Notes under the pieces: model-generated
The model's input: only the letters and a program-made list of their open reading frames with translations
Database searches by the model: none
What the model was told of the DNA's origin: nothing
Source of the DNA: Bacillota bacterium
GTDB taxonomy: Bacteria; Bacillota; Clostridia; Christensenellales; SZUA-584
DNA: 64,000 bases
Assembly: GCA_023410595.1 (NCBI GenBank)
Contig: JAEYPO010000016.1
Coordinates: forward strand, 17,121 to 81,120
Reading direction: 5' to 3'
Program-made: the position numbers and the translations under genes
Shown: piece after piece, positions 6,518 to 54,083 of the stretch
How positions within the stretch are numbered: position 1 is the first letter of the stretch
Layout of the letters: the number at the start of each line of letters is the position of its first letter

Positions 6518-7432
6518 CTATTCCAGCATGTTCTCGAATTCTTCTTCACCCGATATCTTTATGGGCGTACCGTATGCCGGTATGCCCGCGAGCGGATCGG
6601 ACATGCTGTTTACAAACCACCTGCCGCCATACTGTATGACCGTGAATCCGCCCATATAATAGCCGCCGTTGTACTTATAAAGCACAGACCTGAACTGCTC
6701 GTCTTCCGCGCCGAACGTCTTCGCCATTTTCATTTGGTTCTCGCGGTTGTTCTCGTTGTCGTGCATACCCATCTTTCCTATTTTAATTAACTCCAGATCG
6801 TTTATCTTCGACGGGTCGAGCGCGTCCATCAGGTCGCCGGGGAATTTCTTGTCAGGAAGAGGCACCGTCGTTCCCGTAAACATGCCGCCGTACTCCTCGG
6901 GCAGGTTTAGTGAAATTGTAAAGCAGGACATCTGCATCATTATCTGCTGCGTCAGCCTCGCCTTGTTCAATTCCAGATACGGCTTATACTCTGAAGGCAG
7001 GAACGACGTCATGATAGGGAGCAGCGTCTGAACGCGCTCCACATACGCCTTATAGTCGAAACCGCCTGCAGTCTCGTTTATGCCGCACGCGGCGAGCGCG
7101 CCGTTAAAGTCGCTTGTCTTCAGGCAATCCACGAAATAGTTTATAGCGTCCTCGGGACTTGCAAAGCTCTTAGACGCGGCGCCGAACGTTCCCGCCGCTC
7201 CGCCGAACACGCCCAAAAACGTAAGCATGAGCGCCGCTGCCAGCATAACCGACAATACGCCGAGCGCTATTGCCGGCGCGTTCCTCTTTTTTGCGGGCCT
7301 AACCGCGGGCTGCTCCGCGCACGGATGGGCCTGCGGCGGCGGAGTATAAGGCTGCGCCTCAAGTTTCACTCCGTAGCTTACGCAAAACGCCGCGCCATGT
7401 GCGTTCTCTTTCCCGCAACTCCTGCAAAACAT
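6518..7432 (-). CDS. zinc-ribbon-like membrane-anchored protein, function unknown
   Basis: 304 aa. The N-terminus MFCRSCGKEN...FCVSYG resembles a zinc ribbon, but the fourth Cys position is Tyr. A Pro-rich linker, one TM helix and an extracytoplasmic domain follow. A hairpin with a T-run lies 3' at about 6473-6505. Confidence 0.6.
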   Translation of the reverse strand: MFCRSCGKENAHGAAFCVSYGVKLEAQPYTPPPQAHPCAEQPAVRPAKKRNAPAIALGVLSVMLAAALMLTFLGVFGGAAGTFGAASKSFASPEDAINYFVDCLKTSDFNGALAACGINETAGGFDYKAYVERVQTLLPIMTSFLPSEYKPYLELNKARLTQQIMMQMSCFTISLNLPEEYGGMFTGTTVPLPDKKFPGDLMDALDPSKINDLELIKIGKMGMHDNENNRENQMKMAKTFGAEDEQFRSVLYKYNGGYYMGGFTVIQYGGRWFVNSMSDPLAGIPAYGTPIKISGEEEFENMLE

Positions 7433-22145: not shown

Positions 22146-22415
22146 GCCGTGCACCCGGAGATCGAAATAGCGCTACAAGAGGTATCACGGCAGGTTGCTC
22201 TGAGCAGACTTATCCGAGGCACACATCCAAAACCGCTTACTGCTGCTACCGTCAGGTCCTGACAGGGTTCACGGCTGTCCGTTGCACGGGGCCCACTCTT
22301 CAACGCCCCTTACCGTTTCCATACCTTACAACGCTATGCCTCAAACCGGGGATCAAACCCTGCTATAGCGGATTGCAGGTTCAGGGCACCGCTGGCTCCC
22401 CGTCTGGCACGGCAA
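22146..22415 (-). ncRNA. ffs: signal recognition particle RNA, long Bacillus-type with Alu domain
   Basis: The minus strand reads GCCGTGCCAGACGGGGAGCCAGCGGTGCCCTGAACCTGCAATCCGCTATAGCAGGG... This closely parallels the remembered B. subtilis scRNA 5' Alu domain. The domain IV core is GTCAGGACCTGACGGTAGCAGC. The 5' GCCGTGC pairs with the 3' GCACGGC, and a T-run follows. Confidence 0.85.
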
Positions 22416-31185: not shown

Positions 31186-31288
31186 AATTCCATAAAATGC
31201 TTGACACTGTTGACGTAAAGTTGTAGTCTCGTTTTAAAGACGTAAGTTTTGCGTCGTTATATAAAATTATTTGTGGGAGGTGATTATC

Positions 31289-31675
31289 ATGGGCAGATAT
31301 CCCAACCTTACGGAAGCGGACAGCGTGATAATGGAGATACTTTGGCGGGACGGCGAATGCAGCAGTTCGGATATGCAAAAGGAAATTGAAGACAAGCTCG
31401 ACTGGTCGCGGCAGACCGTACGCACTTATCTCGTGCGCCTTGTGGAAAAAGGGCTTGTCGGTACAAAAGAGCTTAGCAAAAGGACGTTCCTGTATTACCC
31501 GAAAGTATCAAAGGCGGAATACGCAGCCGATAAGTCAGGAAGTATACTCAATAGATATTACGGCTCGCTTTCCCATATGGTAGCGGGCCTTTTGCAGCAG
31601 GAAAACGTATCCGACGAAGAACTGGACGAACTGGAGAATCTCATACGCCGCGCACGCAGCAAAGAGGTGAAGTAA
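31289..31675 (+). CDS. BlaI/MecI/CopY-family transcriptional repressor
   Basis: Winged-helix block LTEADSVIMEILWRDGECSSSDMQKEIEDKLDWSRQTVRTYLVRLVEKGLV. ATG 31289 with GGGAGG 8 nt upstream. Confidence 0.85.
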   Translation: MGRYPNLTEADSVIMEILWRDGECSSSDMQKEIEDKLDWSRQTVRTYLVRLVEKGLVGTKELSKRTFLYYPKVSKAEYAADKSGSILNRYYGSLSHMVAGLLQQENVSDEELDELENLIRRARSKEVK

Positions 31676-31677
31676 CA

Positions 31678-34191
31678 ATGGCCGGTATATTTAAGCCGAT
31701 ACTGGAGGCAAGCGTTATGGCGTCCGTTATGATATGCCTGGTGCTGCTCATACGCGCGCTGCTTGCTAGAAGCATGCGTCCGGGCGTAATGCTTATGCTG
31801 TGGGGATTGGTGCTTTTGCGCCTTTTCCTGCCTCTTACTCTTACAAGCCCCGTTAATCTGATAACAATACCGCGGCAATCCACAGCTATAGAGTCGGACT
31901 ATGCGCCCACGGCAGCGCAGGATTTTACGCCTGCAGCTGAAAGCGACGCGAGCGCGCCTCAAATGAGCGCCGTCCGCGGCAGCAGTGATACTGTCGAGCC
32001 TGCAGTAAGAAAGTCCGCTGATACGGGCGGCAGTACAGCGAATGCCCCTGCATGGAACATATCGTATCATATCTGGGACGTAGCTGCCGCAGCATGGGTG
32101 GCGGGCATACTTGCGACGCTGCTGCTGTTCGCAAGAAAGGCGCGTATTTTCTCAAAACACTTAAAACTGTGCGCTCCGGTAACGGACGCCGCAGTGCTTG
32201 ATATGATTCGCCGACACAGCGACGAAGCCGGGATAAGAACGGCCGCAGCCGCGCTTGTATGCGACTTTTTTCACGCCCCTATGGTATATGGGTATTTCAG
32301 GCCGCGCATTCTTATTCCCACCATATTCCTTAACATGGGAAGAGGAAGCCTGGGTGCCATATTGCTGCATGAAGTCATCCATATACGTCGCCGCGACATA
32401 CTTAAGAACTACATATGGCTCGTGGCCAAGGCGCTGCACTGGTTCAACCCGCTCGTATGGCTCGCGTTCGAACTGTACGAAGACGATATAGAGCTGTGCC
32501 GCGATTACAACGTAGCGTATATGCTCAATACTGACGGCGCGTTCGTTTACAGCATGTCTCTGCTCGAAGCCGCGCGGTTATCCCGGCGGACGGCCTATCC
32601 TCCTTCGCAGGCCGTGGCGTTGTTTGAAAGCACTGGCTCTCTTAAAACAAGGATATTCCGCCTCATGAAGCCCGTTAAACATAAAAAAACAGCTGCCATC
32701 CTTTCTGTATTGCTCGCGCTCGTCATGACTGTCACCTGCTTTACGACGGCCTGCCAGCCGACGCCCGTAACGCCGCCTGTACCCAATAAGAACGTCGATA
32801 TAGTTGAGCAGGTCGTGGATGCAAATAAAGAGGAAAACAAGCCGAAACTTAGCGAATATAAACAAGCCGTCGACGAGCAGATAAAAGCACTGGGCTCACA
32901 CCTCGACATGGAGATGCAGCCGAATAAGCAGGTCAAAATAGTCGTGAACGCGGATATCGTCTCGCCGGGAAATATAAAGATACCCGTTATGCGCCTAAAG
33001 CCCAAGAATTTTTCTAAAGAACAGTTTGAAGCGTTTGTGAAATACCTGACAAATGGGGAGCCTCTATATTATCAGACGTTCAACAAGCAGACCGGAGAAA
33101 TGTTTTCCAAAGAGGAAATGACTGCAATAATCGCGCGGATTAAGGGTCTACTTAATAACAAAGACCTTCCGGGCAATACGAGAAGCGCTTGGAAATCGAG
33201 GATCAGAGAAATGGAAAATGCCTACGACGGCGCTCCGACACAATCGGAGGAAAAGCTGTACGATGGCACTCTTACCGTTACACAGAGTGCGGAAGAGGAT
33301 TCCGACGGAACTATTACCTATTATGACAGCGGTTCGTACACAGACTTAAAATGTTATCTGGGAAAAGACAGGGCGGCTTATATAAACCTTATACAGTCCG
33401 AAAAAGAAGCCAGCACCCAGATGGTTTTCGACAACGGCAACTACGGTTTCGGGTACAATACGTTCAAGCCGTACGACGGCGCGGACGCGGAACGCCTGAA
33501 TATGACGTATGAAGAAGCAAAGGCCAAAGCGGAGGAATTCGTGCGTGCAATGGACGGCGAGGACACGAATATGGTGATGCATAGTTCCTCAATAGGGTAT
33601 GACCTTGGCACGATAACAAACTATACGAAGGAAACGTCGCCCCAATGCTATTCGTTCAGCTTTGCGAGAAGCTACAACGGTTTCGTGCTGAAGCCTGTGG
33701 GTCACCTGTGGGGCACACTTGACATGCAAAAGGATTCCGAAGCTTACGCCAAACGGGTAAGTCCTGAAAGCATGTTCGTAACCATCGACGACGAAGGTAT
33801 ATGCAGCACGGGCTGGCTAAACCAGACGGAATATATCGAGACAGTAACAGAGGATACGCCGCTGCTCGATTTCAATACCGTGGTAGATAATTTCGAGCAG
33901 TACTGCAAGCAGAAGTTTACATGGATACCCGACGATGATACGACGCCCCACGGCCTTACGGTATCGTTCAACGTAAAGCGCGTGGAAATGAACCTGATGG
34001 CCATACCAGAAAAAGACAACCTTGAGAACCTCGTTACTGTGCCGGTGTGGGATTTCATAGCAGACGAGGAGTTCGACGACAAGGAAGCCGTCGACGTGGA
34101 GGGGTTTGCGCTGGAAGGGGAAAAAGACATAAGCATAGTAACGGTAAACGCGATAAACGGAACTATTATAAACCGCGAGCAGGGGTATTAA
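31678..34191 (+). CDS. BlaR1/MecR1-like M56 peptidase-domain signal transducer with a large uncharacterised ectodomain
   Basis: 837 aa. N-terminal TM helices precede the zinc-protease motif LLHEVIHIRRRD (HExxH). A further TM ends ...FTTAC, and a ~480-aa extracytoplasmic domain follows. That domain lacks the SxxK/KTG motifs of a penicillin-sensor domain. Confidence 0.8.
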   Translation: MAGIFKPILEASVMASVMICLVLLIRALLARSMRPGVMLMLWGLVLLRLFLPLTLTSPVNLITIPRQSTAIESDYAPTAAQDFTPAAESDASAPQMSAVRGSSDTVEPAVRKSADTGGSTANAPAWNISYHIWDVAAAAWVAGILATLLLFARKARIFSKHLKLCAPVTDAAVLDMIRRHSDEAGIRTAAAALVCDFFHAPMVYGYFRPRILIPTIFLNMGRGSLGAILLHEVIHIRRRDILKNYIWLVAKALHWFNPLVWLAFELYEDDIELCRDYNVAYMLNTDGAFVYSMSLLEAARLSRRTAYPPSQAVALFESTGSLKTRIFRLMKPVKHKKTAAILSVLLALVMTVTCFTTACQPTPVTPPVPNKNVDIVEQVVDANKEENKPKLSEYKQAVDEQIKALGSHLDMEMQPNKQVKIVVNADIVSPGNIKIPVMRLKPKNFSKEQFEAFVKYLTNGEPLYYQTFNKQTGEMFSKEEMTAIIARIKGLLNNKDLPGNTRSAWKSRIREMENAYDGAPTQSEEKLYDGTLTVTQSAEEDSDGTITYYDSGSYTDLKCYLGKDRAAYINLIQSEKEASTQMVFDNGNYGFGYNTFKPYDGADAERLNMTYEEAKAKAEEFVRAMDGEDTNMVMHSSSIGYDLGTITNYTKETSPQCYSFSFARSYNGFVLKPVGHLWGTLDMQKDSEAYAKRVSPESMFVTIDDEGICSTGWLNQTEYIETVTEDTPLLDFNTVVDNFEQYCKQKFTWIPDDDTTPHGLTVSFNVKRVEMNLMAIPEKDNLENLVTVPVWDFIADEEFDDKEAVDVEGFALEGEKDISIVTVNAINGTIINREQGY

Positions 34192-34301: not shown

Positions 34302-35513
34302 TTACGGCACCTCAATGTGCCACACTACGTCGCCCGCCTCGCTGGCGCTGTCCGTCGTGTCGTACCACAGTACGTCTTTGCCGTTTACGCCTATAAGCAC
34401 GGCCTTCGTTGTATCGCCTGACAGCGTGCCTGACGAACCGTCCTTGAAGTAATAGATGTGTATCACTTCGTCCTTCGTGTACGCGACGAACCCGTCGCCT
34501 ATATGGTAACTCAGCACGTCCTTTGCTATTTCGACGGGCTGCGAAAGGCTGTCGCCTTCCTTCTTCATATACATCAGCGAGCTGTTTTCATCGCCCGCGC
34601 CGTTTAAAAACACGATATCGTTTCCGTCTATCATCGGATTGTACACATACATGCCGGGCAGATACGTCGCGCGCTGCGTATCCCCGTTGTTTACAAGAGG
34701 AACTATGCTTATCTGTGTATTAAGCGACGCCGACGAGCCTTTTAATATCTGGCTCTCGCCTTCGGGCTGCACGTATATTATCGCTTCGTCCGACATATAC
34801 GGAGCGCTAATCGAGAACGGAGTATTGATAAACTCCTCTATAGTCACGGCTTCTTTAGTCTCAAGGTTGTAAAGGTACAGCTTGTCCGTGCCCGTGCCCG
34901 TCTGCTGCATCCACAGCGCGTAGTTGCCCGACAGCGTTACCTTCGGCTTGCCGAAGAGATACTCCCTTATTACAAACTGTGTGCCCGCCGCCCGGTCGTA
35001 TCCACACAGCGCGCCGCCGTTCTCCATCTTGCAGTCAAGATAAACGATGTATTTATCGTTCATTTTGGGCTCAAACAGGCTGTCGTTCTTCTTTGTGATG
35101 CCCGGAACCTCGTTTAACTGCCCCGACGTCATATCGAATATATCTATTTTGTTTATTTCGGGGGCCGCCTCTGCTTCGTTCCCTGTCGTGAACACGACCT
35201 CCGTTCCATATACAAACGGGTCGTTTATGGATTTAGGAGTAATCTGAAGCTGCGCAGCCTTATCCGAGATGCTGCCTGTAATAACGGGCGTAGCGCTGGG
35301 TGTGGGCGTGTGCGATACTTCGGGAGTCGGCTCGGGTTTCTTGCCGGCAAACAGCGGCACTATAACAAAAATGATAAGCACCGCCAGCACGCCGGCCGCT
35401 GCCAGCGCCAGCCCTCCTATCTTAAGTATAGAACCGTAATCGCGCAAGATCGACCTTCTGCGCCCTCTGCCTCTTAAGCTGCTCCTTCTTCTGTACTTTC
35501 TTCTTGAAATCAC
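34302..35513 (-). CDS. membrane-anchored protein with repeat-rich ectodomain, function unknown
   Basis: Arg-rich N-terminus, one TM helix, a Pro/Thr linker and a ~330-aa ectodomain. Start at GTG 35513 with GGAGG 7 nt upstream. The ORF-track TTG at 35528 overlaps the RBS. Confidence 0.6.
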   Translation of the reverse strand: MISRRKYRRRSSLRGRGRRRSILRDYGSILKIGGLALAAAGVLAVLIIFVIVPLFAGKKPEPTPEVSHTPTPSATPVITGSISDKAAQLQITPKSINDPFVYGTEVVFTTGNEAEAAPEINKIDIFDMTSGQLNEVPGITKKNDSLFEPKMNDKYIVYLDCKMENGGALCGYDRAAGTQFVIREYLFGKPKVTLSGNYALWMQQTGTGTDKLYLYNLETKEAVTIEEFINTPFSISAPYMSDEAIIYVQPEGESQILKGSSASLNTQISIVPLVNNGDTQRATYLPGMYVYNPMIDGNDIVFLNGAGDENSSLMYMKKEGDSLSQPVEIAKDVLSYHIGDGFVAYTKDEVIHIYYFKDGSSGTLSGDTTKAVLIGVNGKDVLWYDTTDSASEAGDVVWHIEVP

Positions 35514-35623
35514 CGGATTAACCTCCAAGTGTTTTTATCCTGAAAACGCAGGTTTGCGGGGTCTTTTTATGTAGCTCAACAAAGCGGACTTATATGACCA
35601 TACTTAATTATATCAAAAATCTG

Positions 35624-42407: not shown

Positions 42408-43763
42408 GTGGATACTTTTTTGATACTTTGGGAAAAAGCTTTGGAAATACTGAAGCAAGACCTGGTCAGCGTGAGGTACGACACGTGGATAAAAACACTG
42501 TCTCCGGTGAAGAAATCCGATGGAATCTATTATTTTCAGACACTCAACCCCATACATAAAGAGCTTGTCGAAAAAAGTTACCGTAACATCATAATAAACG
42601 CCATGGACATGGCGATGCAGTCTTTAGGGCTCGACGTTGAAAACATCAGCGTCGTGTTTCTCGATACCGAAGAAGCTGCGAAAATAAAGCAGCCGCAGTC
42701 TTTAGGCGATTCTTCTTCAATAAAAACCACGCTCAATCCCACATATACTTTTGACTCGTTTGTCGTTGGCTCGTCTAACGAGTTCGCGCACGCTGCCGCC
42801 GTCGCGGTCGCGGAAAATCCCGGGCGAACATACAATCCTCTGTTCATATACGGCAAGACAGGGCTTGGCAAGACACACTTGATGCAGGCAATAGCCAACC
42901 ATATATCTGAGAACAAGGAAAGCTATACGGTAATGTTCGTAAAGAGCGAGCCGTTTTTAAATGACCTCATACACGCGATAAGGACTTCAAAAACCGAAGA
43001 ATTCCGCAAAAGGTACAGAAAAGCGGACGTGCTGCTCATTGACGATATACAGTTCATAGCCGGCAAAGAGAGTACGCAGGAGGAATTTTTCCATACTTTC
43101 AATGATCTGCACGAGAACAACAAACAGATCATACTTTCTTCCGACAAGCCGCCGAAGGAGATACCGCTCTTAGAGGAACGGCTGCAGTCGCGGTTTGAGG
43201 GCGGCCTCATAGCCGACATACAGCCGCCGAACTACGAAACTAAGCTTGCGATACTTATTAAAAAAGCAAAAGACATAGCCGCGCGCGACGGGTTTAAGTA
43301 TGAAATAAACCAGGAGATATTGGATCTTATAGCGACGAAGGTGTCTTCCAATATACGCTCGCTTGAAGGCGCGCTCAACAAGATAATAGCTTATACCGTG
43401 CTTAACGGCAGAACGCCCAACGTAATAGAAGCGGAGATTGCTATACGCGATTTTCTTACCACAACGACGACGAAGAAGATATCCGCAAAGCAGATACTGC
43501 AGCTTGTGTGCGAGTATTACGAGATATCCGAAGACGAGATAACGAGCAACAAAAAGAATCAGAACATAGCTTACCCGCGGCAGATAGCGATGTTTTTAAC
43601 GCGCAAGCTAATGGACATGTCGTATAAATCCATAGCCGAGATGTACGGCAAGAGCGATCATACGACCGTAAAGCACGCGTACGATAAAATAGAGCGCGAG
43701 CTCAAGAAAAATCTTGAGGTAAGGACGCTTGTGGATGACTTCATCGCAAAGCTGCGCGAATAG
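42408..43763 (+). CDS. dnaA: chromosomal replication initiator protein DnaA
   Basis: 451 aa with Walker A GKTGLGKTHL, the DDIQF box and the C-terminal DNA-binding end ...DHTTVKHAYDKI. GTG start with GAGGTG 8 nt upstream. Confidence 0.97.
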   Translation: MDTFLILWEKALEILKQDLVSVRYDTWIKTLSPVKKSDGIYYFQTLNPIHKELVEKSYRNIIINAMDMAMQSLGLDVENISVVFLDTEEAAKIKQPQSLGDSSSIKTTLNPTYTFDSFVVGSSNEFAHAAAVAVAENPGRTYNPLFIYGKTGLGKTHLMQAIANHISENKESYTVMFVKSEPFLNDLIHAIRTSKTEEFRKRYRKADVLLIDDIQFIAGKESTQEEFFHTFNDLHENNKQIILSSDKPPKEIPLLEERLQSRFEGGLIADIQPPNYETKLAILIKKAKDIAARDGFKYEINQEILDLIATKVSSNIRSLEGALNKIIAYTVLNGRTPNVIEAEIAIRDFLTTTTTKKISAKQILQLVCEYYEISEDEITSNKKNQNIAYPRQIAMFLTRKLMDMSYKSIAEMYGKSDHTTVKHAYDKIERELKKNLEVRTLVDDFIAKLRE

Positions 43764-43967
43764 TGGACAGGCTGTTTACAAAGGTGGATTAAGATCATTA
43801 AGCCAAAAGAAGTTTTGCACGCGTTTTAATATGCTCATACACGGTGTGTGCAAAAAAACTGTGCGGCAGAAAACATAGAAAGCTCTCTTTCCATGCGGCT
43901 TAAATGGGTTGTCCACGCTATATACATTACTACTATTACTGTTACTACTTAATAAACAAGTGGAAAT
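43762..43967. promoter_or_regulatory. DnaA-box cluster III / predicted unwinding region (oriC, dnaA-dnaN part)
   Basis: Degenerate boxes aGTGGAcAg (43762), gGTGGATtA (43782), TTgTCCACg (43909) and aGTGGAaAt (43959), plus an AT-rich tract up to the dnaN RBS. Confidence 0.65.
43918..43950. repeat. DnaA-trio array
   Basis: The array starts immediately after box TTGTCCACG. The top strand reads CTA TAT ACA TTA CTA CTA TTA CTG TTA CTA CTT. The bottom strand, written 3' to 5', reads GAT ATA TGT AAT GAT GAT AAT GAC AAT GAT GAA. Seven of 11 triplets fit the 3'-[G/A]AT-5' trio motif. The core closely resembles the remembered B. subtilis CTACTATTACTTCTACTA. Confidence 0.6.
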
Positions 43968-44007
43968 ATAATTACACAACAATGAACTTACTTTCAAGGA
44001 GAACGGA

Positions 44008-45111
44008 ATGAAACTGGTCTGTGAAAAGAACGAACTTCAGAAAAACGTAAATATTGTGACAAAGGCCGTAGCGCCCAAGTCGCCCGTATATGTGCTCGAA
44101 GGTGTATATATAAAAGCCGAAGACAAAGGGATAACGATGTTTGGCAGCGACGGCACGCTTTCCATAAAGTGCTCTTTGGAGGCGACCGTACTCGAGCCTG
44201 GAGATATAGTGCTGCCCGCGAGGCTGCTTGCAGAAATACTCGCCAAGTTTGAAGACTGCGAGATATCGATGTATACGGAAGGCAATAACATGATAATGCA
44301 GTGCGGCCATTCCACGACGACGCTGTGTTATATGGACCCGTCCTCTTACCCCGCGTTCCCGGCCTGCGACAGGACAAAGGGAGTTACTGCGTTTTCCAAT
44401 CAGATAGTTTCAATGATAGACCAGACGGTGTTCGCGACGTCGGTGAGCGAAGACAAGCCCATACTTACGGGAATACTGCTTGAATTCGAAAGTGAAAAGC
44501 TTAAAATGGTGGCGCTCGACGGCTACCGTCTCGCCGTAAGGCAGGAAAGGATACAGTCGGGGACGGACGCGGGTGAAGTCGTTGTGCCCTCAAGGTCGAT
44601 GCGCGAGATAGCGCGCATACTGCCCGAGGAAGAGGAGACAGTTAAGCTTTATGCGGGCGACAGCCTTGTTACCGTCGTTTGCGGCGATATAGAGATAGCG
44701 ACGAGAGTGCTTCAGGGCGACTATGTAAAATACAAAAACATACTGCCCACGGAACATACGACGAGGGTAATTATAAACACGCTTAATTTTTTAAGCAGCC
44801 TCGAGCGGGCGAGCATACTGGCGAGGCAGTCGAAGACTAACCTTGTCAACCTCTCCATGGAGGGCTCGCTGATGACTATAACGTCGGATTCTGAGATAGG
44901 CAAGGCGCGCGAAGAGGTGGATATTGCTCTTACTGGAAAGAGCCTCGATATATCGTTCAACTCGCGATACCTGCTGGATGTTTTAAAAGAGGTAAAGGAC
45001 GACGAGATAGTGCTCGATTTGAATACAAATATAAGCCCGTGCATGATACACCCTGTGCAGGGCGGCAGCTTTTTGTATCTCGTACTGCCTGTGAAAACGA
45101 GCAATGGCTGA
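44008..45111 (+). CDS. dnaN: DNA polymerase III beta sliding clamp
   Basis: 367 aa with typical DnaN length and sequence (MKLVCEKNELQKNVNIV...DGYRLAVR...). Immediately downstream of dnaA. Confidence 0.95.
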   Translation: MKLVCEKNELQKNVNIVTKAVAPKSPVYVLEGVYIKAEDKGITMFGSDGTLSIKCSLEATVLEPGDIVLPARLLAEILAKFEDCEISMYTEGNNMIMQCGHSTTTLCYMDPSSYPAFPACDRTKGVTAFSNQIVSMIDQTVFATSVSEDKPILTGILLEFESEKLKMVALDGYRLAVRQERIQSGTDAGEVVVPSRSMREIARILPEEEETVKLYAGDSLVTVVCGDIEIATRVLQGDYVKYKNILPTEHTTRVIINTLNFLSSLERASILARQSKTNLVNLSMEGSLMTITSDSEIGKAREEVDIALTGKSLDISFNSRYLLDVLKEVKDDEIVLDLNTNISPCMIHPVQGGSFLYLVLPVKTSNG

Positions 45112-45164
45112 TAGTATGAAATTACTCAAGGCTCTCTTTTAAGAGGGCCTTTTACATTGATATA

Positions 45165-45420
45165 AAAGCGGGCGGACAGTGACGGTCCTCTATTCGTATG
45201 GGCAATAAACTTCACTGACGTTCGTTTATCACCTCATACCATACAGCTAACGCTAGTCACAGAACATTCATCTCGCTTTATCCGCCACTGGCGGCGCTTG
45301 CTTACGGTTCCGCCCCTATGGATATTAAACAACCACTATTTAATAACTTTATATAAAATAGCACCTCATCCGGCGTTTAGCGCCGCCTTCACCTTTAGGA
45401 GAAGGCTTATGACGTAATAT
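45165..45420. other. hairpin-rich non-coding segment downstream of dnaN (possible degenerate relative of repeats A/B, or an unannotated RNA)
   Basis: Nested complementary pairs GGGCGGA (45173)/TCCGCCC (45311), GTGAC/GTCAC and GTATGG/CCATAC. Local hairpins CCGCC-ACT-GGCGG and CGGCG-TTTAG-CGCCG. No convincing ORF. Confidence 0.3.
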
Positions 45421-45553
45421 ATTTTTTTCAAATGAATTGGGGATTGTCTAAAGAAAAAGAAAGTTATAGTATATAATCGGCATGTTTGTAATTAATTATC
45501 ATTAACGTTACTTTTATTTGATGATTTACTAATAACGATTTTAGGAGAGTTAG

Positions 45554-46942
45554 ATGAAAAAGATAAAACTTATTTATACGGTATTAGTTATTATGTTAAT
45601 AATGACTGCATGTCGGTCTACGCCGGAAGAACCGATTGTAATAGATAAAGGTGATGACAATATGGATTTTGTACAAAGCAATTCCATAAGTACTTCTATA
45701 AGCAGCCAATATCCGTCTAGCTGGACGGAGAAAATACAGAACAACGAAGGATCAGACTTTATAGATATAAATGCGACGGTTAAATTTCCTGCTATCAACT
45801 CAATACCGATAATTTGTGTGAAGCCTCATGCATTCTCACAGGGAGAAGTAGAAAATCTTGTACAATATTTTTCTCAAGGAAAACCTCTTTATTCAACAGA
45901 TGAAACTATGACAAAATCAGATATTGAGATGCACGTAATTGAGTTAAGGGGGATTCTTGAAGAGGCAAAGGATGGGAATGAAGACTTGGGCACACCTGAA
46001 GAAATACAGAAACAGATTGATTCACTTGAAGAGCAATATGAGAATGCTCCTGAAACACGAAATAATACCATAGTTGATTCAACGTTGAAAATACAGCCCG
46101 GAACTTCAAGAGAAGTACTGGATGTGGCTATTGACATAAGTAACGGTGAATATGCAAGAATAAGCCTAATTAATTGCAATGAATCTAATTATAATACCGT
46201 TTTTACTTATCAAAATGGTCAATTATATAAACCGGTGGAAGAGTTATATGGAAAAGACGCTGAAGGACTAAATACTACACTTATTAAAGCCACTCAAGAG
46301 GCAGAAGCAATGTTAAAAAATTTGGGCATAGTTGAATATGAAGCTGTTTCAATAGAGACAGGTGCAAAGCAATTAAACTCAGATAGTCTTGATCTAGAAC
46401 AGCAAGGCTATATTATTAAATATAGGTTGAAGAAAAATGATTTAATGTATTTATTTTGTGAAGGACGAGATTACACCGGTATTACTATTGATGAAAAAAC
46501 GGGCTTTTATGTATATGAAAGTACTAGAGAAATCGTAGAAGAATTTGCACCGACTTGGAGCATCAGCGAAATAAGCATTAATATTGATGACTCTGGTGTA
46601 ACATTTTTTAACTGGAATAATCCTGTTGAAATTGTTGAAAGCATAAGTGATAATGTAGGTCTTTTGCCTTTTAATGAAGTACAGCGAATTTTTACTCAGC
46701 AAATGAAGTCTGCTTATATATATAATAGCAATGGCTTGTTATATCATGTTGACAAGATTGAGCTTGGTTTGGCAGCAACAGCCCATAAAGATAATATCGG
46801 ACAATTTCTAATGGTTCCAGTTTGGATTTTCTATGGATATTGCGAAGATACAAATATGCCGGATGCATATCAAGAAGCAAAAACAAAGGGGTATACATCA
46901 ATTTTAGTGTTAAATGCCGTCAACGGGAGCATAATTAAATAA
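45554..46942 (+). CDS. lipoprotein, paralog of the BlaR1-like ectodomain, encoded in an AT-rich islet
   Basis: 462 aa with the lipobox LIMTAC and RBS AGGAGA. It shares blocks with 31678-34191: INATVKFPAINSIPIICVKPHAFS...GKPLY vs VNADIVSPGNIKIPVMRLKPKNFS...GEPLY. The C-terminal blocks MVPVWIF...LNAVNGSII match TVPVWDF...VNAINGTII. Confidence 0.75.
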   Translation: MKKIKLIYTVLVIMLIMTACRSTPEEPIVIDKGDDNMDFVQSNSISTSISSQYPSSWTEKIQNNEGSDFIDINATVKFPAINSIPIICVKPHAFSQGEVENLVQYFSQGKPLYSTDETMTKSDIEMHVIELRGILEEAKDGNEDLGTPEEIQKQIDSLEEQYENAPETRNNTIVDSTLKIQPGTSREVLDVAIDISNGEYARISLINCNESNYNTVFTYQNGQLYKPVEELYGKDAEGLNTTLIKATQEAEAMLKNLGIVEYEAVSIETGAKQLNSDSLDLEQQGYIIKYRLKKNDLMYLFCEGRDYTGITIDEKTGFYVYESTREIVEEFAPTWSISEISINIDDSGVTFFNWNNPVEIVESISDNVGLLPFNEVQRIFTQQMKSAYIYNSNGLLYHVDKIELGLAATAHKDNIGQFLMVPVWIFYGYCEDTNMPDAYQEAKTKGYTSILVLNAVNGSIIK

Positions 46943-47013
46943 TTAATATTTAGCCCATCCGAACTTTTAAGCAATAAAAACGGTATAAGTCTTGCCACAG
47001 AATGAAATTCGTA

Positions 47014-47739
47014 TCAGTTGTCGTGATGTTCTTTTGACTTTAAGAATGTCCGCTCGAGCCAGCTTTTGAGGCGGTCTTCTATCAAGGGAGCGTATTTAAT
47101 TGAGAGTATGAACACGACCACGGCGGCGCAGACTATAGCGATCCAGCCCCATTCGGGTATTTCTATCATGCCGGAGCCCAGCATAGCGGAAAACAGCAGG
47201 CCCCATGGGCGGGTCAGTATTACCAAGAGCGCGAAATACGGCACGCTCATCGCCGAAAGCCCCGCGAGCAGGCACAGCACGTCGTCAGGAAAAAACGGCA
47301 TAATGAACATTATTATCAGTACGACCTTCTGCCGCGAAGACACGACCGTCATGTATTTTTCAATCACAGTTTTGCCCACTATGCGCTCCACAAGCGGCTT
47401 GCCGAACAGCCTGCCCAGCAGAAAAGCTACTAAAGAGCCTAAAAAAATGGCGCCGGTAGATATGAGAAACGCCGGAAAGAAACCGAACAGCATGCCGCCC
47501 GCGATCGTAGTGACGTTGCCGGGTATGGGCGACACAATTACCTGAAAGAATTGCAGCAGGAAAAACGCGAGCGGAGCGAGCGCGCCGAACGAGGCTACGT
47601 ATTTGCGCACCTCTTCGTTGGATTCAAAAAGACGGAACCAGCCGGCCCCCTTGCCAATGTAATAAAGTATTATGAGGGCCGCGACGAGAGCGACCAGCAC
47701 GCAGCACCATATAATCTGCTTCTTAGTAAATTTTCTCAT
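47014..47739 (-). CDS. TVP38/TMEM64 (DedA/SNARE-associated) family membrane protein
   Basis: 241 aa and polytopic, with a typical family block ...VSPIPGNVTTIAGGMLFG... Confidence 0.8.
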   Translation of the reverse strand: MRKFTKKQIIWCCVLVALVAALIILYYIGKGAGWFRLFESNEEVRKYVASFGALAPLAFFLLQFFQVIVSPIPGNVTTIAGGMLFGFFPAFLISTGAIFLGSLVAFLLGRLFGKPLVERIVGKTVIEKYMTVVSSRQKVVLIIMFIMPFFPDDVLCLLAGLSAMSVPYFALLVILTRPWGLLFSAMLGSGMIEIPEWGWIAIVCAAVVVFILSIKYAPLIEDRLKSWLERTFLKSKEHHDN

Positions 47740-47883
47740 GCAGACAGTATAACATATGCTATGCTAAACTTTCACTATTTTTGTTTGCAGTAACAACGGG
47801 AAAGAGTCTTAAAATATAGTGTTACATTAAGAGGGCTATCAACGGTTGTCTCCCTTTGAGATATATGATGACTATTAAAATAA

Positions 47884-47910
47884 ACAGAGAAGGCGCACAC
47901 TGTGCGCCTT
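47884..47910 (-). terminator. intrinsic terminator after purL
   Basis: The arms AAGGCGCACA and TGTGCGCCTT are perfectly complementary. On the minus strand they are followed by CTCTGTTTATTTT. Confidence 0.65.
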
Positions 47911-47943
47911 TCATATCCCTTCAGGCAAGGGAGGCATTAAAAA

Positions 47944-50900
47944 TCATAGAAAGTACCTGACGCCCGCCTCGAATATGCGCTGGTCCTTATTGCCGGGTAT
48001 GTTTTTCATGTTGCCGGGAGTAAAGCGCTCGCTGTGCGCCATCTTGCCCAGTACTCTGCCGTCGGGAGACATAAGGCCTTCCACCGCCAGCATAGAGCCG
48101 TTGGGGTTGCCCTCTCCCATCGTGGGAACCCCCAATTCGTCCACATACTGCGTGGCTACCTGGCCGCGCTGATACAATGACAGCGCCTCTTCCCCGGACG
48201 CTACGAATCGCCCCTCGCCGTGGGAGACTGCGACGGCGTGTATATCTCCGGGCGAGCAAAGCGAAAGCCACGGCGATAAGTTTGACGTTATTCGCGTTCT
48301 TACCATGCGCGAAACATGTCGGCCTATGGCGTTGAACGTGAGTGTCGGGCTGTCTTCTCTCATGTCGCGTATCTCGCCGTACGGCACAAGCCCCGACTTT
48401 ATCAGCGCCTGAAAGCCGTTGCAGATGCCCAAAATGAGCCCGTCGCGCGCAAGCAGGCCTTCTATGTCCCGCCTTATTTTCGGGGCGCGCAGCACGGCTG
48501 TTATAAACTTGCCCGAGCCGTCGGGTTCGTCGCCGCCCGAGAAGCCGCCGGGTATCATCAGTATCTGGCTGCTTTCTAAAAGCCGGGCCAGCTCATCTAT
48601 GCTGTAATCAATATCGCCCGCAAGTATGTTGCGCATCACGAAAACAGAGGTCCGCCCGCCCGCTTGCTCAAACGCGGCGGCCGAATCGTACTCGCAGTTA
48701 GTGCCCGGAAACACGGGTATTACTATGCGCGGTTTTGCTTTTTCTCCCGAGTATACGCGTATATTTTTACACTCGTATAACATATCTGGTATCTTTTCGC
48801 CGCTTGCGGCAGAAATGGGATATACGCCAGCCAAAGTCGCCTCATACGCCTTGCGGACTAAGTACAGCTCTACCGACTCGCCGCTAAAAGTTATAGAGCT
48901 TCCTCCCGTCTCCCCTATGCGCTCGAATGGAAGATCGTCTCCCTCGAGTATGAGGTCGCCGTACGCTTTTTGGCAAAGGTCATTGATATCGCCTCTAAGC
49001 TCAGCGCCGATCGAATTGCCGAGAGCCATCTTCGCTGCCGCCGCGAGCGCGCCGCCGCGCTCTATGGCATACGCGGAGATAATACGCTTTTGTTTAATAA
49101 GTTCGTAAACTTTTGCGTATACCGACTTTATGCTTTCAAAGTCGGGCATGCCGCTGGCGTCGCGCGATATACGCGCGCGGTATATTCCGCTGCCTTCCCG
49201 CTTGAATTCAGGCGAGATTATATTATCCACGTTTTCCGTGCACAGGGCGAACGAAACGAGTGTGGGCGGCACGTGAATATGTTCAAACGAACCGGACATC
49301 GAATCCTTGCCGCCTATTGCCGGAACCTTTAGATTCTTTTGCGCCCACCACGCGCCCAGCAGCGCCGCAAGCGGTTTACCCCACGCATCCTCCCCGCCCA
49401 TGCGCTCGAAATACTCCTGCAGCGTAAGGTACGCGCGCGATATATCGCCGCCCGATGCCGCTAATTTTGCGAGCGATAAAACTATAGAATATACCGCGCC
49501 CAGTAAAGGGTTGCTTTCCATCAGATACGGATCGAAGCCGTATGAGAAAAGCGTCGAAGTATCGCACTGCCCTTCGGCGGCAACCTTTGCAGCCATGGCC
49601 TGCACGGGCGTAAGCTCATGCCTGCCTCCGAGAGGCATGCTGACGGTGTTTGCGCCTATCGTAGAGTCGAACATCTCAATTAGGCCTTTTTTGGAGCATA
49701 TGCTGAGGTCGGAGACAAGCGACAGAAGCGTATCCTTAAATGTATCAGCGACATGCTCGCTGAAAAGCCCGTCGGTATTGAGACCGGAGACGCGTGCGTT
49801 TGCCGTCGCCGTCGCACCGTTGGTGTTTAAAAATTCCCGCTTTATGCTGACTATTGGCTTGCCGCGCCAATACAGCTCCATGCGGGCGTCGTCCGTCACT
49901 TCAGCGACAAGGTCCGCGTGAAGATTCTCTTCTCCTGCGAGCTCAAGAGCTCTGCTTAAGTCTTTCGGGTCTATCACGACGGCCATGCGCTCCTGGCTCT
50001 CGGATATAGCGAGCTCCACGCCGCCGAGGCCTTCGTATTTTCTGCGCACGGAGTCTAAATTAACGCGCACGCCGTCCGCGAGCTCTCCTATGGCCACGCA
50101 TACGCCACCCGCGCCGAAGTCGTTGCAGCGCTTTATTAGCGTGGAAAACTCCTTGTTTCTATAAAGCCGCTGAAGCTTGCGCTCCGTTAGCGGGTTGCCC
50201 TTTTGCACCTCCGCGCCGCATGTGTCTATAGACTGCTTATCGTGCGCCTTTGATGAGCCGGTGGCGCCGCCGCAGCCGTCGCGCCCCGTCGCTCCGCCCA
50301 GCAGCAGTATAACGTCGCCCGGCTGTGGCTCCATTCGCACTACGTTTTCCGCGGGCGCCGCCCCTATTACGGCGCCTATCTCCATGCGCTTCGCCTTATA
50401 GCCCTCGTGGTATATTTCGTCGACAAGGCCGGTTGCGAGACCAATCTGGTTGCCGTAGGATGAATAGCCGTGCGCGGCCTCTTTGCATATTTTCCTTTGA
50501 GGCAGCTTGCCGGGCAGAGTGTCTTTTACGCTCTCGCGCGGGTCGCCGCTGCCTGTTACGCGCATGGCGTGGTAGACGTACGAGCGCCCCGAAAGCGGGT
50601 CGCGTATAGCTCCGCCAAGGCACGTCGCCGCGCCGCCGAACGGCTCTATCTCCGTCGGGTGGTTGTGCGTCTCGTTCTTGAACATTATGAGGTAATCTTG
50701 CAGCTTGCCGCCCACGGATACGCTCTCGCGTATCGAGCACGCGTTTATCTCGTCGGATATATCGAGGCCGGGATGCCCCTCTTTTATAGCCTGCTTCGCA
50801 TAAAGTGTCGCTATATCCATGAGGCAGATATCCTTTTGTTTTTCCCCATGAACCGATTTGCGTGTTTTCAGGTATTCGCCGTATATGTTCCGGGCAGTTT

Positions 50901-51633
50901 CAGCAGTTTCATCGAACGACACGTTATCGAGCCTTGTCAGAAACGTCGTGTGGCGGCAGTGATCCGACCAGTATGTGTCTATTACGCGTATCTCGGCAAG
51001 CGTCGGGTCGCGCTTCTCGTCATGTTTAAAATAATTTTGCACGAACGATATGTCCTCAAAGCTCATCGCGAGGCCGTATGACGTTATGAATGTCTTTAGC
51101 TCGCCGGCAGCATATTCGCAAAAGCCGTAAAGTATCTCCACGTCGGCGGGAGCGGGAAGGTTTTCCCTGAGCGTTTCGGGCAGCGCTTCGCCCGCCTCGC
51201 GCGAGTCGACGGGGTTTATTACATAACGCTTTATGTCCTCCGCGTCCACTTCGCTTGCGCCCGACAGCACGTAGACAGTCGCGCACCGCACGACAGGGCT
51301 AATCTTAAGCGAAGGCAGCAGCAGCCCGATGCACTGCGCGGCGCTGTCCGCCCGCTGGTCGTACTGCCCCGGCAGGTATTCTGTGGCGAATAGTATATCG
51401 CCTTTGTCTGCGGAAAACGCGCCGCAGTAAACGGCGTCGGCAGCAGGCTCCGAAAACACGTTTTTAACTGCCGACCCAAACTCCTCTTCGCCGAGACCCT
51501 CTATATCGTAACGTATCAGTATGCGTACGTTTTGCAGCGCTTTTTTGCCCAGTGTGTCGCGAAAATCAACCAAAGCCGCTTTCGCGCTGATATCAAAGCC
51601 GGGTTTTTTCTCCACATATATGCGTCTTACCAT
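47944..51633 (-). CDS. purL: phosphoribosylformylglycinamidine synthase, single-chain large form
   Basis: About 1229 aa containing the PurS-like, FGAM synthetase and C-terminal glutaminase (ICNGFQAL) regions. ATG 51633 with AAGGAG 6 nt upstream. The ORF-track start is at 51678. Confidence 0.95.
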   Translation of the reverse strand: MVRRIYVEKKPGFDISAKAALVDFRDTLGKKALQNVRILIRYDIEGLGEEEFGSAVKNVFSEPAADAVYCGAFSADKGDILFATEYLPGQYDQRADSAAQCIGLLLPSLKISPVVRCATVYVLSGASEVDAEDIKRYVINPVDSREAGEALPETLRENLPAPADVEILYGFCEYAAGELKTFITSYGLAMSFEDISFVQNYFKHDEKRDPTLAEIRVIDTYWSDHCRHTTFLTRLDNVSFDETAETARNIYGEYLKTRKSVHGEKQKDICLMDIATLYAKQAIKEGHPGLDISDEINACSIRESVSVGGKLQDYLIMFKNETHNHPTEIEPFGGAATCLGGAIRDPLSGRSYVYHAMRVTGSGDPRESVKDTLPGKLPQRKICKEAAHGYSSYGNQIGLATGLVDEIYHEGYKAKRMEIGAVIGAAPAENVVRMEPQPGDVILLLGGATGRDGCGGATGSSKAHDKQSIDTCGAEVQKGNPLTERKLQRLYRNKEFSTLIKRCNDFGAGGVCVAIGELADGVRVNLDSVRRKYEGLGGVELAISESQERMAVVIDPKDLSRALELAGEENLHADLVAEVTDDARMELYWRGKPIVSIKREFLNTNGATATANARVSGLNTDGLFSEHVADTFKDTLLSLVSDLSICSKKGLIEMFDSTIGANTVSMPLGGRHELTPVQAMAAKVAAEGQCDTSTLFSYGFDPYLMESNPLLGAVYSIVLSLAKLAASGGDISRAYLTLQEYFERMGGEDAWGKPLAALLGAWWAQKNLKVPAIGGKDSMSGSFEHIHVPPTLVSFALCTENVDNIISPEFKREGSGIYRARISRDASGMPDFESIKSVYAKVYELIKQKRIISAYAIERGGALAAAAKMALGNSIGAELRGDINDLCQKAYGDLILEGDDLPFERIGETGGSSITFSGESVELYLVRKAYEATLAGVYPISAASGEKIPDMLYECKNIRVYSGEKAKPRIVIPVFPGTNCEYDSAAAFEQAGGRTSVFVMRNILAGDIDYSIDELARLLESSQILMIPGGFSGGDEPDGSGKFITAVLRAPKIRRDIEGLLARDGLILGICNGFQALIKSGLVPYGEIRDMREDSPTLTFNAIGRHVSRMVRTRITSNLSPWLSLCSPGDIHAVAVSHGEGRFVASGEEALSLYQRGQVATQYVDELGVPTMGEGNPNGSMLAVEGLMSPDGRVLGKMAHSERFTPGNMKNIPGNKDQRIFEAGVRYFL

Positions 51634-51753
51634 TCGTGTCTCCTTTTGAGCCTGATAATAAAGAGAGTATATATGCATTCAGAGCCGTATACAATAGAAA
51701 AGGCAGATAAAAAACAAGATGAAAGACAAAATGTTCGGGATTAATAAATTTTA

Positions 51754-51762
51754 TGTGGATAA
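51754..51762. promoter_or_regulatory. isolated perfect DnaA box between purL and the remB-like gene
   Basis: TGTGGATAA in the divergent intergenic region. A single box, so functional status is uncertain. Confidence 0.35.
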
Positions 51763-51895
51763 ATTGCGGAAGAAATTCAAATCCCTCTTTTAATATCCAT
51801 AGAATTTGATATAATATATATATTATATAGTAGATTTATTTCGGGTTTCGCATAAAGTTACTTTATTGGTATTTTAAAAGAAGGCAGGGGAATTG

Positions 51896-52144
51896 ATGGT
51901 GCTGCACATAGGAAAAGACGCAATGGTCCCGCTTAAGGACGTCGTGTTCATACTCGACTACAAGGAAGCAAAGACTAACGACGATACGAACAACGCTCTG
52001 AAGCGTCTGGGAGACACAGCGCACAACATATACATAGAGAAGTATAATATAAAATCCATAGTCGTGACGCGATTCCTCGATAAGTTTTTCATATACTATT
52101 CGCCCATCTCCCCCGCGACGCTATATAAACGTTCAAGGTCATGA
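51896..52144 (+). CDS. remB: DUF370 / RemB-like small protein
   Basis: Resembles B. subtilis YaaB/RemB: (MVLHIGKD..VVFILDY...IKSIVVT...IYYSPISPATLYKR). Conserved position directly upstream of gyrB. Confidence 0.8.
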   Translation: MVLHIGKDAMVPLKDVVFILDYKEAKTNDDTNNALKRLGDTAHNIYIEKYNIKSIVVTRFLDKFFIYYSPISPATLYKRSRS

Positions 52145-52166
52145 TATTTAATTTCTTATAGATTAA

Positions 52167-54083
<1,917 letters not shown>

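Follow-up and report, generated by a model that had tools for sequence, protein, structure and literature searches.

A strain-variable island between dnaN and a VTT-family gene encodes a predicted DUF6034 lipoprotein distantly related to a resident M56 sensor ectodomain

Results

A predicted DUF6034 lipoprotein is encoded downstream of dnaN

The 64,000-nucleotide (nt) stretch of Bacillota DNA analyzed here (assembly GCA_023410595.1, contig JAEYPO010000016.1, positions 17,121 to 81,120 of the forward strand; hereafter, the window) covers a chromosomal origin region in which an AT-rich island carrying a lipoprotein gene separates dnaN from a convergent gene of the VTT/DedA family (Table 1). An original prediction, made from the sequence alone, had proposed that this gene was recently acquired and that it encodes a free, lipid-anchored copy of the ectodomain of a BlaR1-like M56 protein encoded in the same window.

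Lipoproteins are recognized by a basic n-region, an h-region and a lipobox Cys within about 15-35 residues. The N-terminus of the island protein, MKKIKLIYTVLVIMLIMTAC, combines a basic n-region with a hydrophobic core and places its lipobox Cys at position 20 (signal peptide, residues 1-19; lipobox I-M-T-A-C; Cys20 codon at 45611-45613), the sequence pattern of a substrate of Lgt and Lsp. The only Pfam family it matched was DUF6034 (PF19499), at residues 1-461 (7e-56, 190.5 bits against a gathering cutoff of 27), which covers model positions 1-475 of 481; it carries no M56 transducer domain. All family-invariant columns were present (A74, A236, Y299, G348, P422, W424, N454, A455 and G458, plus C20), as was the Cys-x-x-T-P tether motif found at the N-terminus of DUF6034 proteins, and a Shine-Dalgarno sequence was read 6 nt 5' of the ATG. 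Judged by its sequence, the gene is an intact one for an exported-type, lipid-anchored extracytoplasmic protein, and every DUF6034 feature that was tested assigns the product to that family. The prediction of a free-standing, lipobox-bearing homologue of the M56 ectodomain was borne out in this respect.

We also compared the protein with other families. The Pfam PepSY (PF03413) and YycH/YycI models gave no match to it at E<=0.1, searches of PDB sequences with the lipoprotein and with the family profile returned nothing meaningful, and hhalign detected no significant internal repeats in DUF6034 family sub-alignments. Because defining features of the BlaR1, YycI/YycH and PepSY families were tested and were absent, the lipoprotein is not a member of any of these.

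The gene occupies a strain-variable island of foreign composition

The dnaN-VTT junction is conserved outside the island. Sequence beyond dnaN was obtained for 22 related species, whose DnaN proteins range in identity from 95% to 64%; in all 22, a convergent VTT gene lies a few to about 90 nt past dnaN, with no DUF6034 gene in between. Identical DnaN was encoded on 11 contigs; the island was present on 4 of the 11, and dnaN was directly followed by VTT on the other seven. From 43001 to 48000, the window was 100% identical to ENA contig ERZ27268903:k141_54385. Strains of the host species, an uncultured Christensenellales-like Bacillota, still differ in whether they carry the island.

Alignment with island-free conspecifics (L062-L065) by BLASTN placed the left breakpoint at 45107|45108 and resumed at 47029, such that 1921 nt in the window replace 114 nt, between flanks of 99.05% nucleotide identity (the dnaN side, up to 45107) and 98.5%. 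The right-hand extra 15 nt (47014-47028) correspond to a small indel at the VTT stop in island-free strains, so the island proper fills the gap between the two stop codons, which are about 100 nt apart in the island-free conspecifics. The VTT/DedA-like protein has 241 amino acids (aa) in the window and in other species, and 256 aa in the island-free conspecifics (L062-L065, about 7206-7250). An ancestral dnaN terminator hairpin is common to L008, L009 and L062-L065; the window has a different hairpin in its place. This hairpin, which together with a T-run occupies about 45130-45153, was read by eye and was not called by a terminator scan.

The composition of the island differed markedly from that of the window. 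Windows of 200 nt over 45400-47000 had G+C (GC) contents of 0.24-0.39, and the 1.5-kb window starting at 45401 was the lowest in all 64 kb (0.335, compared to a mean of 0.507 and a standard deviation [sd] of 0.043). GC content was 0.343 for the lipoprotein gene and 0.266 at its third codon positions (GC3), compared to ~0.53 and ~0.63 for the 38 other long open reading frames (ORFs) in the window, corresponding to z-scores of -6.2 and -9.0. The original prediction had put dnaN at 55-63% GC; this was too high (about 0.50 overall, 0.47-0.575 in 200-nt windows), while the AT-richness of the island and its contrast with dnaN held. The island therefore combines composition and codon usage that are atypical of the host with presence/absence polymorphism at a conserved syntenic site.

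Since the island is absent from the junctions of 22 species and from 7/11 identical-DnaN contigs, and since the GC3 of its gene is 9 sd low, the sequence evidence strongly supports its recent horizontal acquisition near the origin, as had been proposed. In this transfer, a single gene took the place of the short dnaN-VTT spacer, about 3 kb from dnaA. In a collection of 5.8 billion proteins, none lay between 48% and 100% identity to the lipoprotein, and only two relatives reached at least 47% (48% and 47%). The nearest, P0002 (48%), is encoded on a contig natively at 0.36 GC, a composition like that of the island. Because the nearest homologues are just 48% and 47% identical and the P0002 contig has a GC content of 0.36, the donor was probably a Firmicute of low GC content, not yet sampled.

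The left part of the island is non-coding. A six-frame check found no ORF in it, no remnant of a PG_binding_1 partner gene was found upstream of the lipoprotein gene, and the 442-nt leader had no Rfam match at E<=1. A hairpin-rich 47-nt motif at 45362-45408 was 83% identical to an intergenic stretch of a relative (L017, 18619-18665). We considered the motif, CACCTCATCCGG, as a lineage repeat and rejected this, as just one other copy was present in all DNA compared. In the relative with 95% DnaN identity (L008, 11100-11265), the sequence past the dnaN terminator resembled neither haplotype before the contig stops; it may represent another insertion at the same spot after dnaN.

Table 1. Features of the island, its flanks and the resident BlaI-M56 locus (positions in the window)
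Feature	Position	Strand	Evidence and remarks
BlaI-family repressor gene, native, partner of the M56 protein	31271..31675	+	Pfam Penicillinase_R 2e-29
Native M56 membrane metalloprotease fused to DUF6034 ectodomain	31678..34191	+	837 aa; two Pfam domains
dnaN (DNA polymerase III beta clamp), core gene, left island anchor	44008..45111	+	Pfam DNA_pol3_beta x3 (match made on the identical contig)
Strain-variable island	45108..47013		Spans the whole gap between the dnaN and VTT stop codons (~1.9 kb)
Non-coding left part of island	45112..45410		GC about 0.45; hairpin and T-run by eye; hairpin-rich motif
AT-rich leader of lipoprotein gene	45411..45553	+	GC 0.24-0.30; AGGAG at 45543-45547
DUF6034 lipoprotein gene	45554..46942	+	462 aa; Pfam PF19499 full length, conserved lipobox, AlphaFold2 model
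VTT/DedA-family membrane protein gene, core, right island anchor	47014..47739	-	Pfam VTT_dom 4e-22

The lipoprotein is a distant paralogue of the resident M56 ectodomain

The M56 protein encoded in the same window contains Peptidase_M56 at residues 8-327 (2.4e-45) and DUF6034 at 348-837 (3e-47), with an HEVIH motif at residue 231. It shares with BlaR1/MecR1 an M56 domain with HExxH and an adjacent BlaI-family repressor gene, and it lacks a penicillin-binding sensor domain (no PF00905 match). The NCBIfam model blaR1_generic matched residues 10-353 only and, at 103.6 bits, stayed below its cutoff of 400. The GC content of the gene, 0.51, is the native composition.

BLASTP aligned residues 70-461 of the lipoprotein with residues 421-831 of the M56 protein (E=6e-32, 26% identity, 433 columns), and a tblastn search of the whole window identified these two DUF6034 copies only. 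Homology of the lipoprotein, along its length, to the M56 ectodomain, which had been proposed from an alignment by eye, was confirmed, with both matching DUF6034 from end to end. The motifs listed in support of it (TAC..TP..P.V..K, the KP..FS...G.PLY block, Y[DE].AP, VPVW.F and NA.NG.II) are all present, and they fall on columns conserved across the family. In a comparison of 177 sequences, the nearest neighbors of the lipoprotein (P0002, P0003, P0059, P0056, P0119, P0058 and P0063) were all free proteins, and the resident ectodomain was placed in a separate clade that mixes free and fused forms. Because identity is 26% and the lipoprotein groups in an all-free clade apart from the resident ectodomain, the sequences identify it as a distant paralogue of that ectodomain and not, as first described, its copy. 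A closer free relative of the resident ectodomain was found elsewhere: P0012, a free 493-aa DUF6034 protein with 51% identity to it, is encoded on a contig from the same sample as the window (ERZ27268903, k141_58443; L005, 8001-9482). That contig has a GC content of 0.53 and YkuD, SdpI and ABC-2 genes as neighbors, and P0012 possibly comes from the same genome.

The fourth transmembrane helix of the M56 protein resembles a lipoprotein signal peptide, running from Met330 to a lipobox Cys359 (nt 32665-32754). All 56 M56::DUF6034 fusions examined keep a complete last helix of this kind, composed of a basic n-region, an h-region and a CFTTAC or LTAC lipobox followed by a QPTPE tether, and 46/56 fusions have a Met 28-30 residues ahead of the lipobox Cys. 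An internal translation start for the ectodomain was considered and rejected, as no Shine-Dalgarno sequence precedes that ATG in the window.

The DNA encoding the M56 ectodomain is also a hotspot of differences between strains. Of about 360 nt differences from L059, a conspecific contig that is 98.4% identical over 22.5 kb, 213 fell within 32676-34175. At residues 486-585, blocks reach a synonymous divergence (dS) of 1.7-1.8, and adjoining blocks are near 0.1; overall, the nonsynonymous to synonymous ratio (dN/dS) is 0.28. This pattern suggests mosaic import of alleles, or gene conversion, between strains or paralogues rather than simple positive selection. The BlaI-M56::DUF6034 pair is kept at the same place in island-free conspecific strains; in one (ERZ28597305 scaffold_149), the M56 protein has 14 residue differences, of which 2 fall within the ectodomain, and another (ERZ27268816 k141_37830) carries another M56 allele. 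Because these strains keep the pair, the resident M56 system does not depend on the island gene. The M56 gene faces a convergent gene for a 408-aa membrane-anchored protein with no Pfam match (34302-35528, minus strand), a neighbor that is conserved in conspecifics.

Predicted structures show fold resemblance to 5coz and YycI

AlphaFold2 models built with family alignments had a predicted local distance difference test score (pLDDT) of 76.6 and a predicted template modelling score (pTM) of 0.68 for the lipoprotein, and 85.8 and 0.86, respectively, for the M56 ectodomain. The mature lipoprotein was modelled as a multi-domain alpha/beta ectoprotein, with the same order of helices and strands as in the M56 ectodomain model. 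The best Foldseek match of both models in the PDB was 5coz (E 2.6e-12 for the lipoprotein and 1.2e-11 for the ectodomain), and YycI (2o3o) was matched by both (about 1e-4 and 1.3e-4). The lipoprotein model also matched the PepSY-containing C-terminal domain of YpeB (5boi; E 7.7e-6).

DUF6034 proteins are mostly free lipoproteins in varied gene neighborhoods

Searching with a profile of 24 members, we retrieved 4641 clusters at the 50% identity level with E<=1e-3, of which 1617 reached E<=1e-30. Among the 183 DUF6034 proteins compared, 119 were free and 56 were M56 fusions, making free proteins about twice as common. These free members are 420-560 aa long, and 110/119 of them have a lipobox-like motif in their first 60 residues.

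Gene neighborhoods were read in about 34 independent free-DUF6034 loci. The genes mostly lie in tandem arrays of 2-8 divergent copies (L004, L007, L036, L041, L046, L052, L054, L069 and others). A DUF6034 gene directly follows a same-strand response-regulator/histidine-kinase pair in 11 independent loci, and in about 8 loci such genes lie beside ATP-binding cassette (ABC) ATPase genes. Five of these ABC ATPase loci (L004, L040, L043, L055 and L058) share one block, in which two unclassified membrane proteins occur together with ABC ATPases and a CARDB-like surface protein; L004 additionally has a MacB/FtsX-type permease. In the subclade of the lipoprotein, the DUF6034 gene comes after a gene for a small secreted PG_binding_1 protein, as seen for P0002 (L003) and twice for P0059 (L069/L070), and the partners encoded upstream of P0002 and P0059 share 54% identity. 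The same order occurs in L039, L040 and L058. The P0059 array in L069 is flanked by an RHS toxin gene and by NlpC/P60 and extracytoplasmic function (ECF) sigma genes.

Association with M56 genes was rare. The original prediction had raised co-occurrence with BlaI/M56 pairs as a check, and of the about 34 loci, only 2 had M56/BlaI genes at a distance of 10 kb or less from the free DUF6034 gene. The closest homologues of the lipoprotein adjoin PG_binding_1 genes or stand alone, with no M56 neighbor. One metagenomic locus (L032, 6976-11380) has a free DUF6034 gene directly upstream of BlaI-M56::DUF6034, its product 28% identical to the fused domain, and is the only example found of the proposed arrangement. 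The island gene itself has no kinase gene nearby; its neighbors are dnaN and VTT.

Discussion

Comparison with known systems

Structurally, the island lipoprotein is no different from other members of Pfam DUF6034; it differs in belonging to a small, divergent, all-free subclade and in sitting in a foreign context without a partner gene. Both architectures, the free one of about 440-540 aa and the M56-fused one of about 770-860 aa, are already included in Pfam DUF6034. The statement that no system of this kind had been described was thus too broad (119 free and 56 fused proteins among those compared here), and the lipoprotein is best regarded as a new member of a catalogued, uncharacterized family of which the free lipoprotein is the commonest form.

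Like BlaR1/MecR1, the resident M56 protein has an HExxH protease domain, an upstream BlaI-family repressor and, by homology, a four-helix topology, and because of these shared parts it probably signals by regulated proteolysis of the repressor. Unlike in BlaR1/MecR1, its ectodomain is DUF6034 rather than a penicillin-binding transpeptidase domain, and it is BlaR-like in the transducer half only; the island lipoprotein is without any M56 domain. A 2026 study of Clostridioides difficile CenIR counted 254 M56 architectures, with true penicillin-binding BlaR making up about 6%, found 96% of M56 genes near a BlaI gene, and described a wide variety of sensing domains in BlaR-like M56 proteins; the nine abundant architectures that it lists do not include DUF6034 (PMC13492132).

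Both models show Foldseek similarity to YycI. With YycH and YycI, the regulators of WalK, the lipoprotein shares a predicted membrane tether and extracytoplasmic position, and the 11 loci in which distant DUF6034 members directly follow a response-regulator/histidine-kinase pair recall the position of yycH/yycI after walRK. It differs in its predicted lipid anchor, whereas YycH/YycI act through a transmembrane helix, and in its much larger size, extra domains, lack of Pfam or sequence similarity and lack of a kinase gene nearby. The C-terminal helix and strands of the lipoprotein, ending '..INA.DG.I', resemble the PepSY unit of YpeB, and the order in its subclade, with a PG_binding_1 gene coming first, recalls that of sleB and ypeB, since SleB contains a PG_binding_1 domain. 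However, Pfam PepSY does not match the lipoprotein, hydrolase domains are absent from the upstream PG_binding_1 partners, the context is not one of sporulation, and the TM-score between YpeB and the lipoprotein model is only 0.20/0.34. The closest solved structure to both models, 5coz (EUBREC_2869 of Eubacterium rectale; TM-score 0.41/0.53), is that of an uncharacterized protein, which is shorter (347 residues) and has no detectable match to the DUF6034 family profile. Because TM-scores are modest and no sequence-level link was found, the modelled likenesses to 5coz, YycI and YpeB are resemblances of fold and not family membership.

Possible functions of the island lipoprotein

We favor, with a probability of roughly 0.55, the interpretation that the lipoprotein is an orphan, recently imported, membrane-tethered binding or regulatory module of the uncharacterized DUF6034 family. 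After processing by Lgt and Lsp, Cys20 would tether the protein to the outer face of the membrane, leaving its alpha/beta body exposed. DUF6034 would serve as a binding or sensing module in the wall zone that modulates a membrane-embedded partner, in cis the M56 anti-repressor protease and in trans a kinase or a transporter. This model is drawn from the fusion of DUF6034 to M56 in the place of the BlaR1 sensor, from its position next to kinase genes, from its pairing with PG_binding_1 genes and from its YycI/YpeB-like fold. More generally, it is plausible that free DUF6034 lipoproteins work in trans with membrane signal transducers, since this fits both the operons with response-regulator/histidine-kinase pairs and the YycI-like fold at the family level. 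The island copy would be an accessory orphan acting, if at all, only through resident components, because it came without a partner gene.

Several observations weigh against this interpretation. The functional assignment of DUF6034 is based on gene context and fold, and operon neighbors cannot tell a co-sensor from a regulated effector. The census of gene contexts draws on distant relatives of 19-32% identity, global similarity to YycI, YpeB and 5coz is modest (TM-scores of at most 0.54), and neither the PDB nor the Pfam PepSY and YycI/YycH models gave a sequence-level match to the lipoprotein. In the set of papers searched, nothing was found on DUF6034, and likewise nothing on EUBREC_2869 or an 'internal lipobox'. 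A promoter scan of the plus strand 5' of the lipoprotein gene found no promoter-like site above chance. Hallmarks of mobility (an integrase or transposase, flanking repeats or a tRNA target) are also lacking: the island has no mobility gene, the lipoprotein gene being its sole gene; its edges have no terminal inverted repeats or target duplications, only short repeats at chance level; and plasmid and phage collections contained no homologue of it.

The original prediction had cast the lipoprotein as a possible co-sensor, decoy or ligand-delivery partner for the M56 transducer. In this model, it would act on the resident M56::DUF6034 protein and tune cleavage of BlaI. Membership of both in one domain family is consistent with this, as is the single metagenomic locus in which a free DUF6034 gene and a BlaI-M56::DUF6034 pair, similarly divergent at 28% identity, lie side by side, and the lipoprotein-like fourth helix in all 56 fusions suggests that sensor and protease could be separable units. 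A dedicated partnership is nevertheless improbable. Most conspecific strains lack the island and still keep the M56 system, the neighbors of the closest homologues are other genes, M56/BlaI genes are near few free DUF6034 genes, and 26% identity gives no sign of a common ligand or interface. Even less likely is a broader version of the same idea, in which DUF6034 is a horizontally exchangeable 'plug-in' sensor lipoprotein. Here the fused ectodomain would be lipidated and cut off by Lgt and Lsp, the M56 protease, and elsewhere histidine kinases, would be controlled non-covalently by the resulting lipoprotein subunit, and free paralogues such as the island gene would swap in and re-tune the BlaI/M56 response. 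If this were true, both internal-lipobox processing in a polytopic protein and the exchange of a sensor subunit by gene transfer would be new.

DUF6034 lipoproteins could instead be effectors, that is, surface binding, immunity or decoy proteins directed against a variable envelope-acting agent such as a bacteriocin, a polymorphic toxin or a phage, regulated by the adjacent two-component systems and working with ABC-type exporters. The homologous domain of the M56 protein would then sense the same class of agent, much as the sensor of BlaR1 has free relatives that bind beta-lactams. The kinship of the BlaR1 sensor with free penicillin-binding proteins is well established, and the analogy speaks for this reading. 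Tandem arrays of 2-8 divergent paralogues fit it, and the neighborhoods with ABC ATPases, unclassified membrane proteins, two-component systems and, in L004, a MacB/FtsX-type permease resemble peptide-immunity loci. The RHS toxin and NlpC/P60 genes near the P0059 array, the mosaic exchange of M56 ectodomain alleles between conspecific strains and the acquisition of a single gene that varies by strain also fit such a role. Nonetheless, we consider it unlikely. No bacteriocin genes were seen next to the arrays, neither PHROGs nor PADLOC matched the lipoprotein or tied it to known defence systems, 2.9 million viral contigs held one distant relative only, and the dN/dS of 0.28 in the variable ectodomain, being below 1, is what imported alleles would give and not positive selection in situ.

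It is also conceivable, if somewhat more doubtful, that the gene is a neutral passenger: a piece of a donor PG_binding_1-DUF6034 operon, perhaps silent, that serves no function here and is on its way to being lost. The usual upstream PG_binding_1 partner of the subclade is missing from the window, no promoter was recognized 5' of the gene, its composition is unameliorated, and the island is the minority haplotype (4/11 contigs). On the other hand, the ORF is intact and full length with all invariant residues, the signal peptide, lipobox and Shine-Dalgarno sequence are in good order, and AT-rich leaders often hold promoters that consensus scans miss.

In itself, the lipoprotein gene is an ordinary accessory gene. 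Its wider interest lies in a natural experiment, in which conspecific strains differ by one gene whose domain also makes up the sensing part of the native BlaI/M56 switch. The signals detected by BlaR-like proteins that do not bind beta-lactams have yet to be established (PMC13492132). In a family that numbers several thousand sequence clusters, the M56 fusion with its retained lipobox, the operons with response-regulator/histidine-kinase pairs, the PG_binding_1 pairs, the YycI/YpeB-like fold and the mosaic allele exchange in the ectodomain each offer a hypothesis.

Other features of the window

The origin region comprises parB, parA, a GDSL hydrolase gene, the blaI-like gene, M56::DUF6034, several other genes, an NlpC/P60 gene, dnaA and dnaN. 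In the 42408-52300 region, dnaN is followed by the island, VTT and purL (both on the minus strand), a small remA-like gene, gyrB and gyrA; recF and yaaA are not at their usual Firmicutes position there. A bacterial large signal recognition particle RNA is encoded at 22147-22412 on the minus strand (Rfam RF01854, 185.8 bits), the sole match in the window to reach an Rfam gathering threshold.

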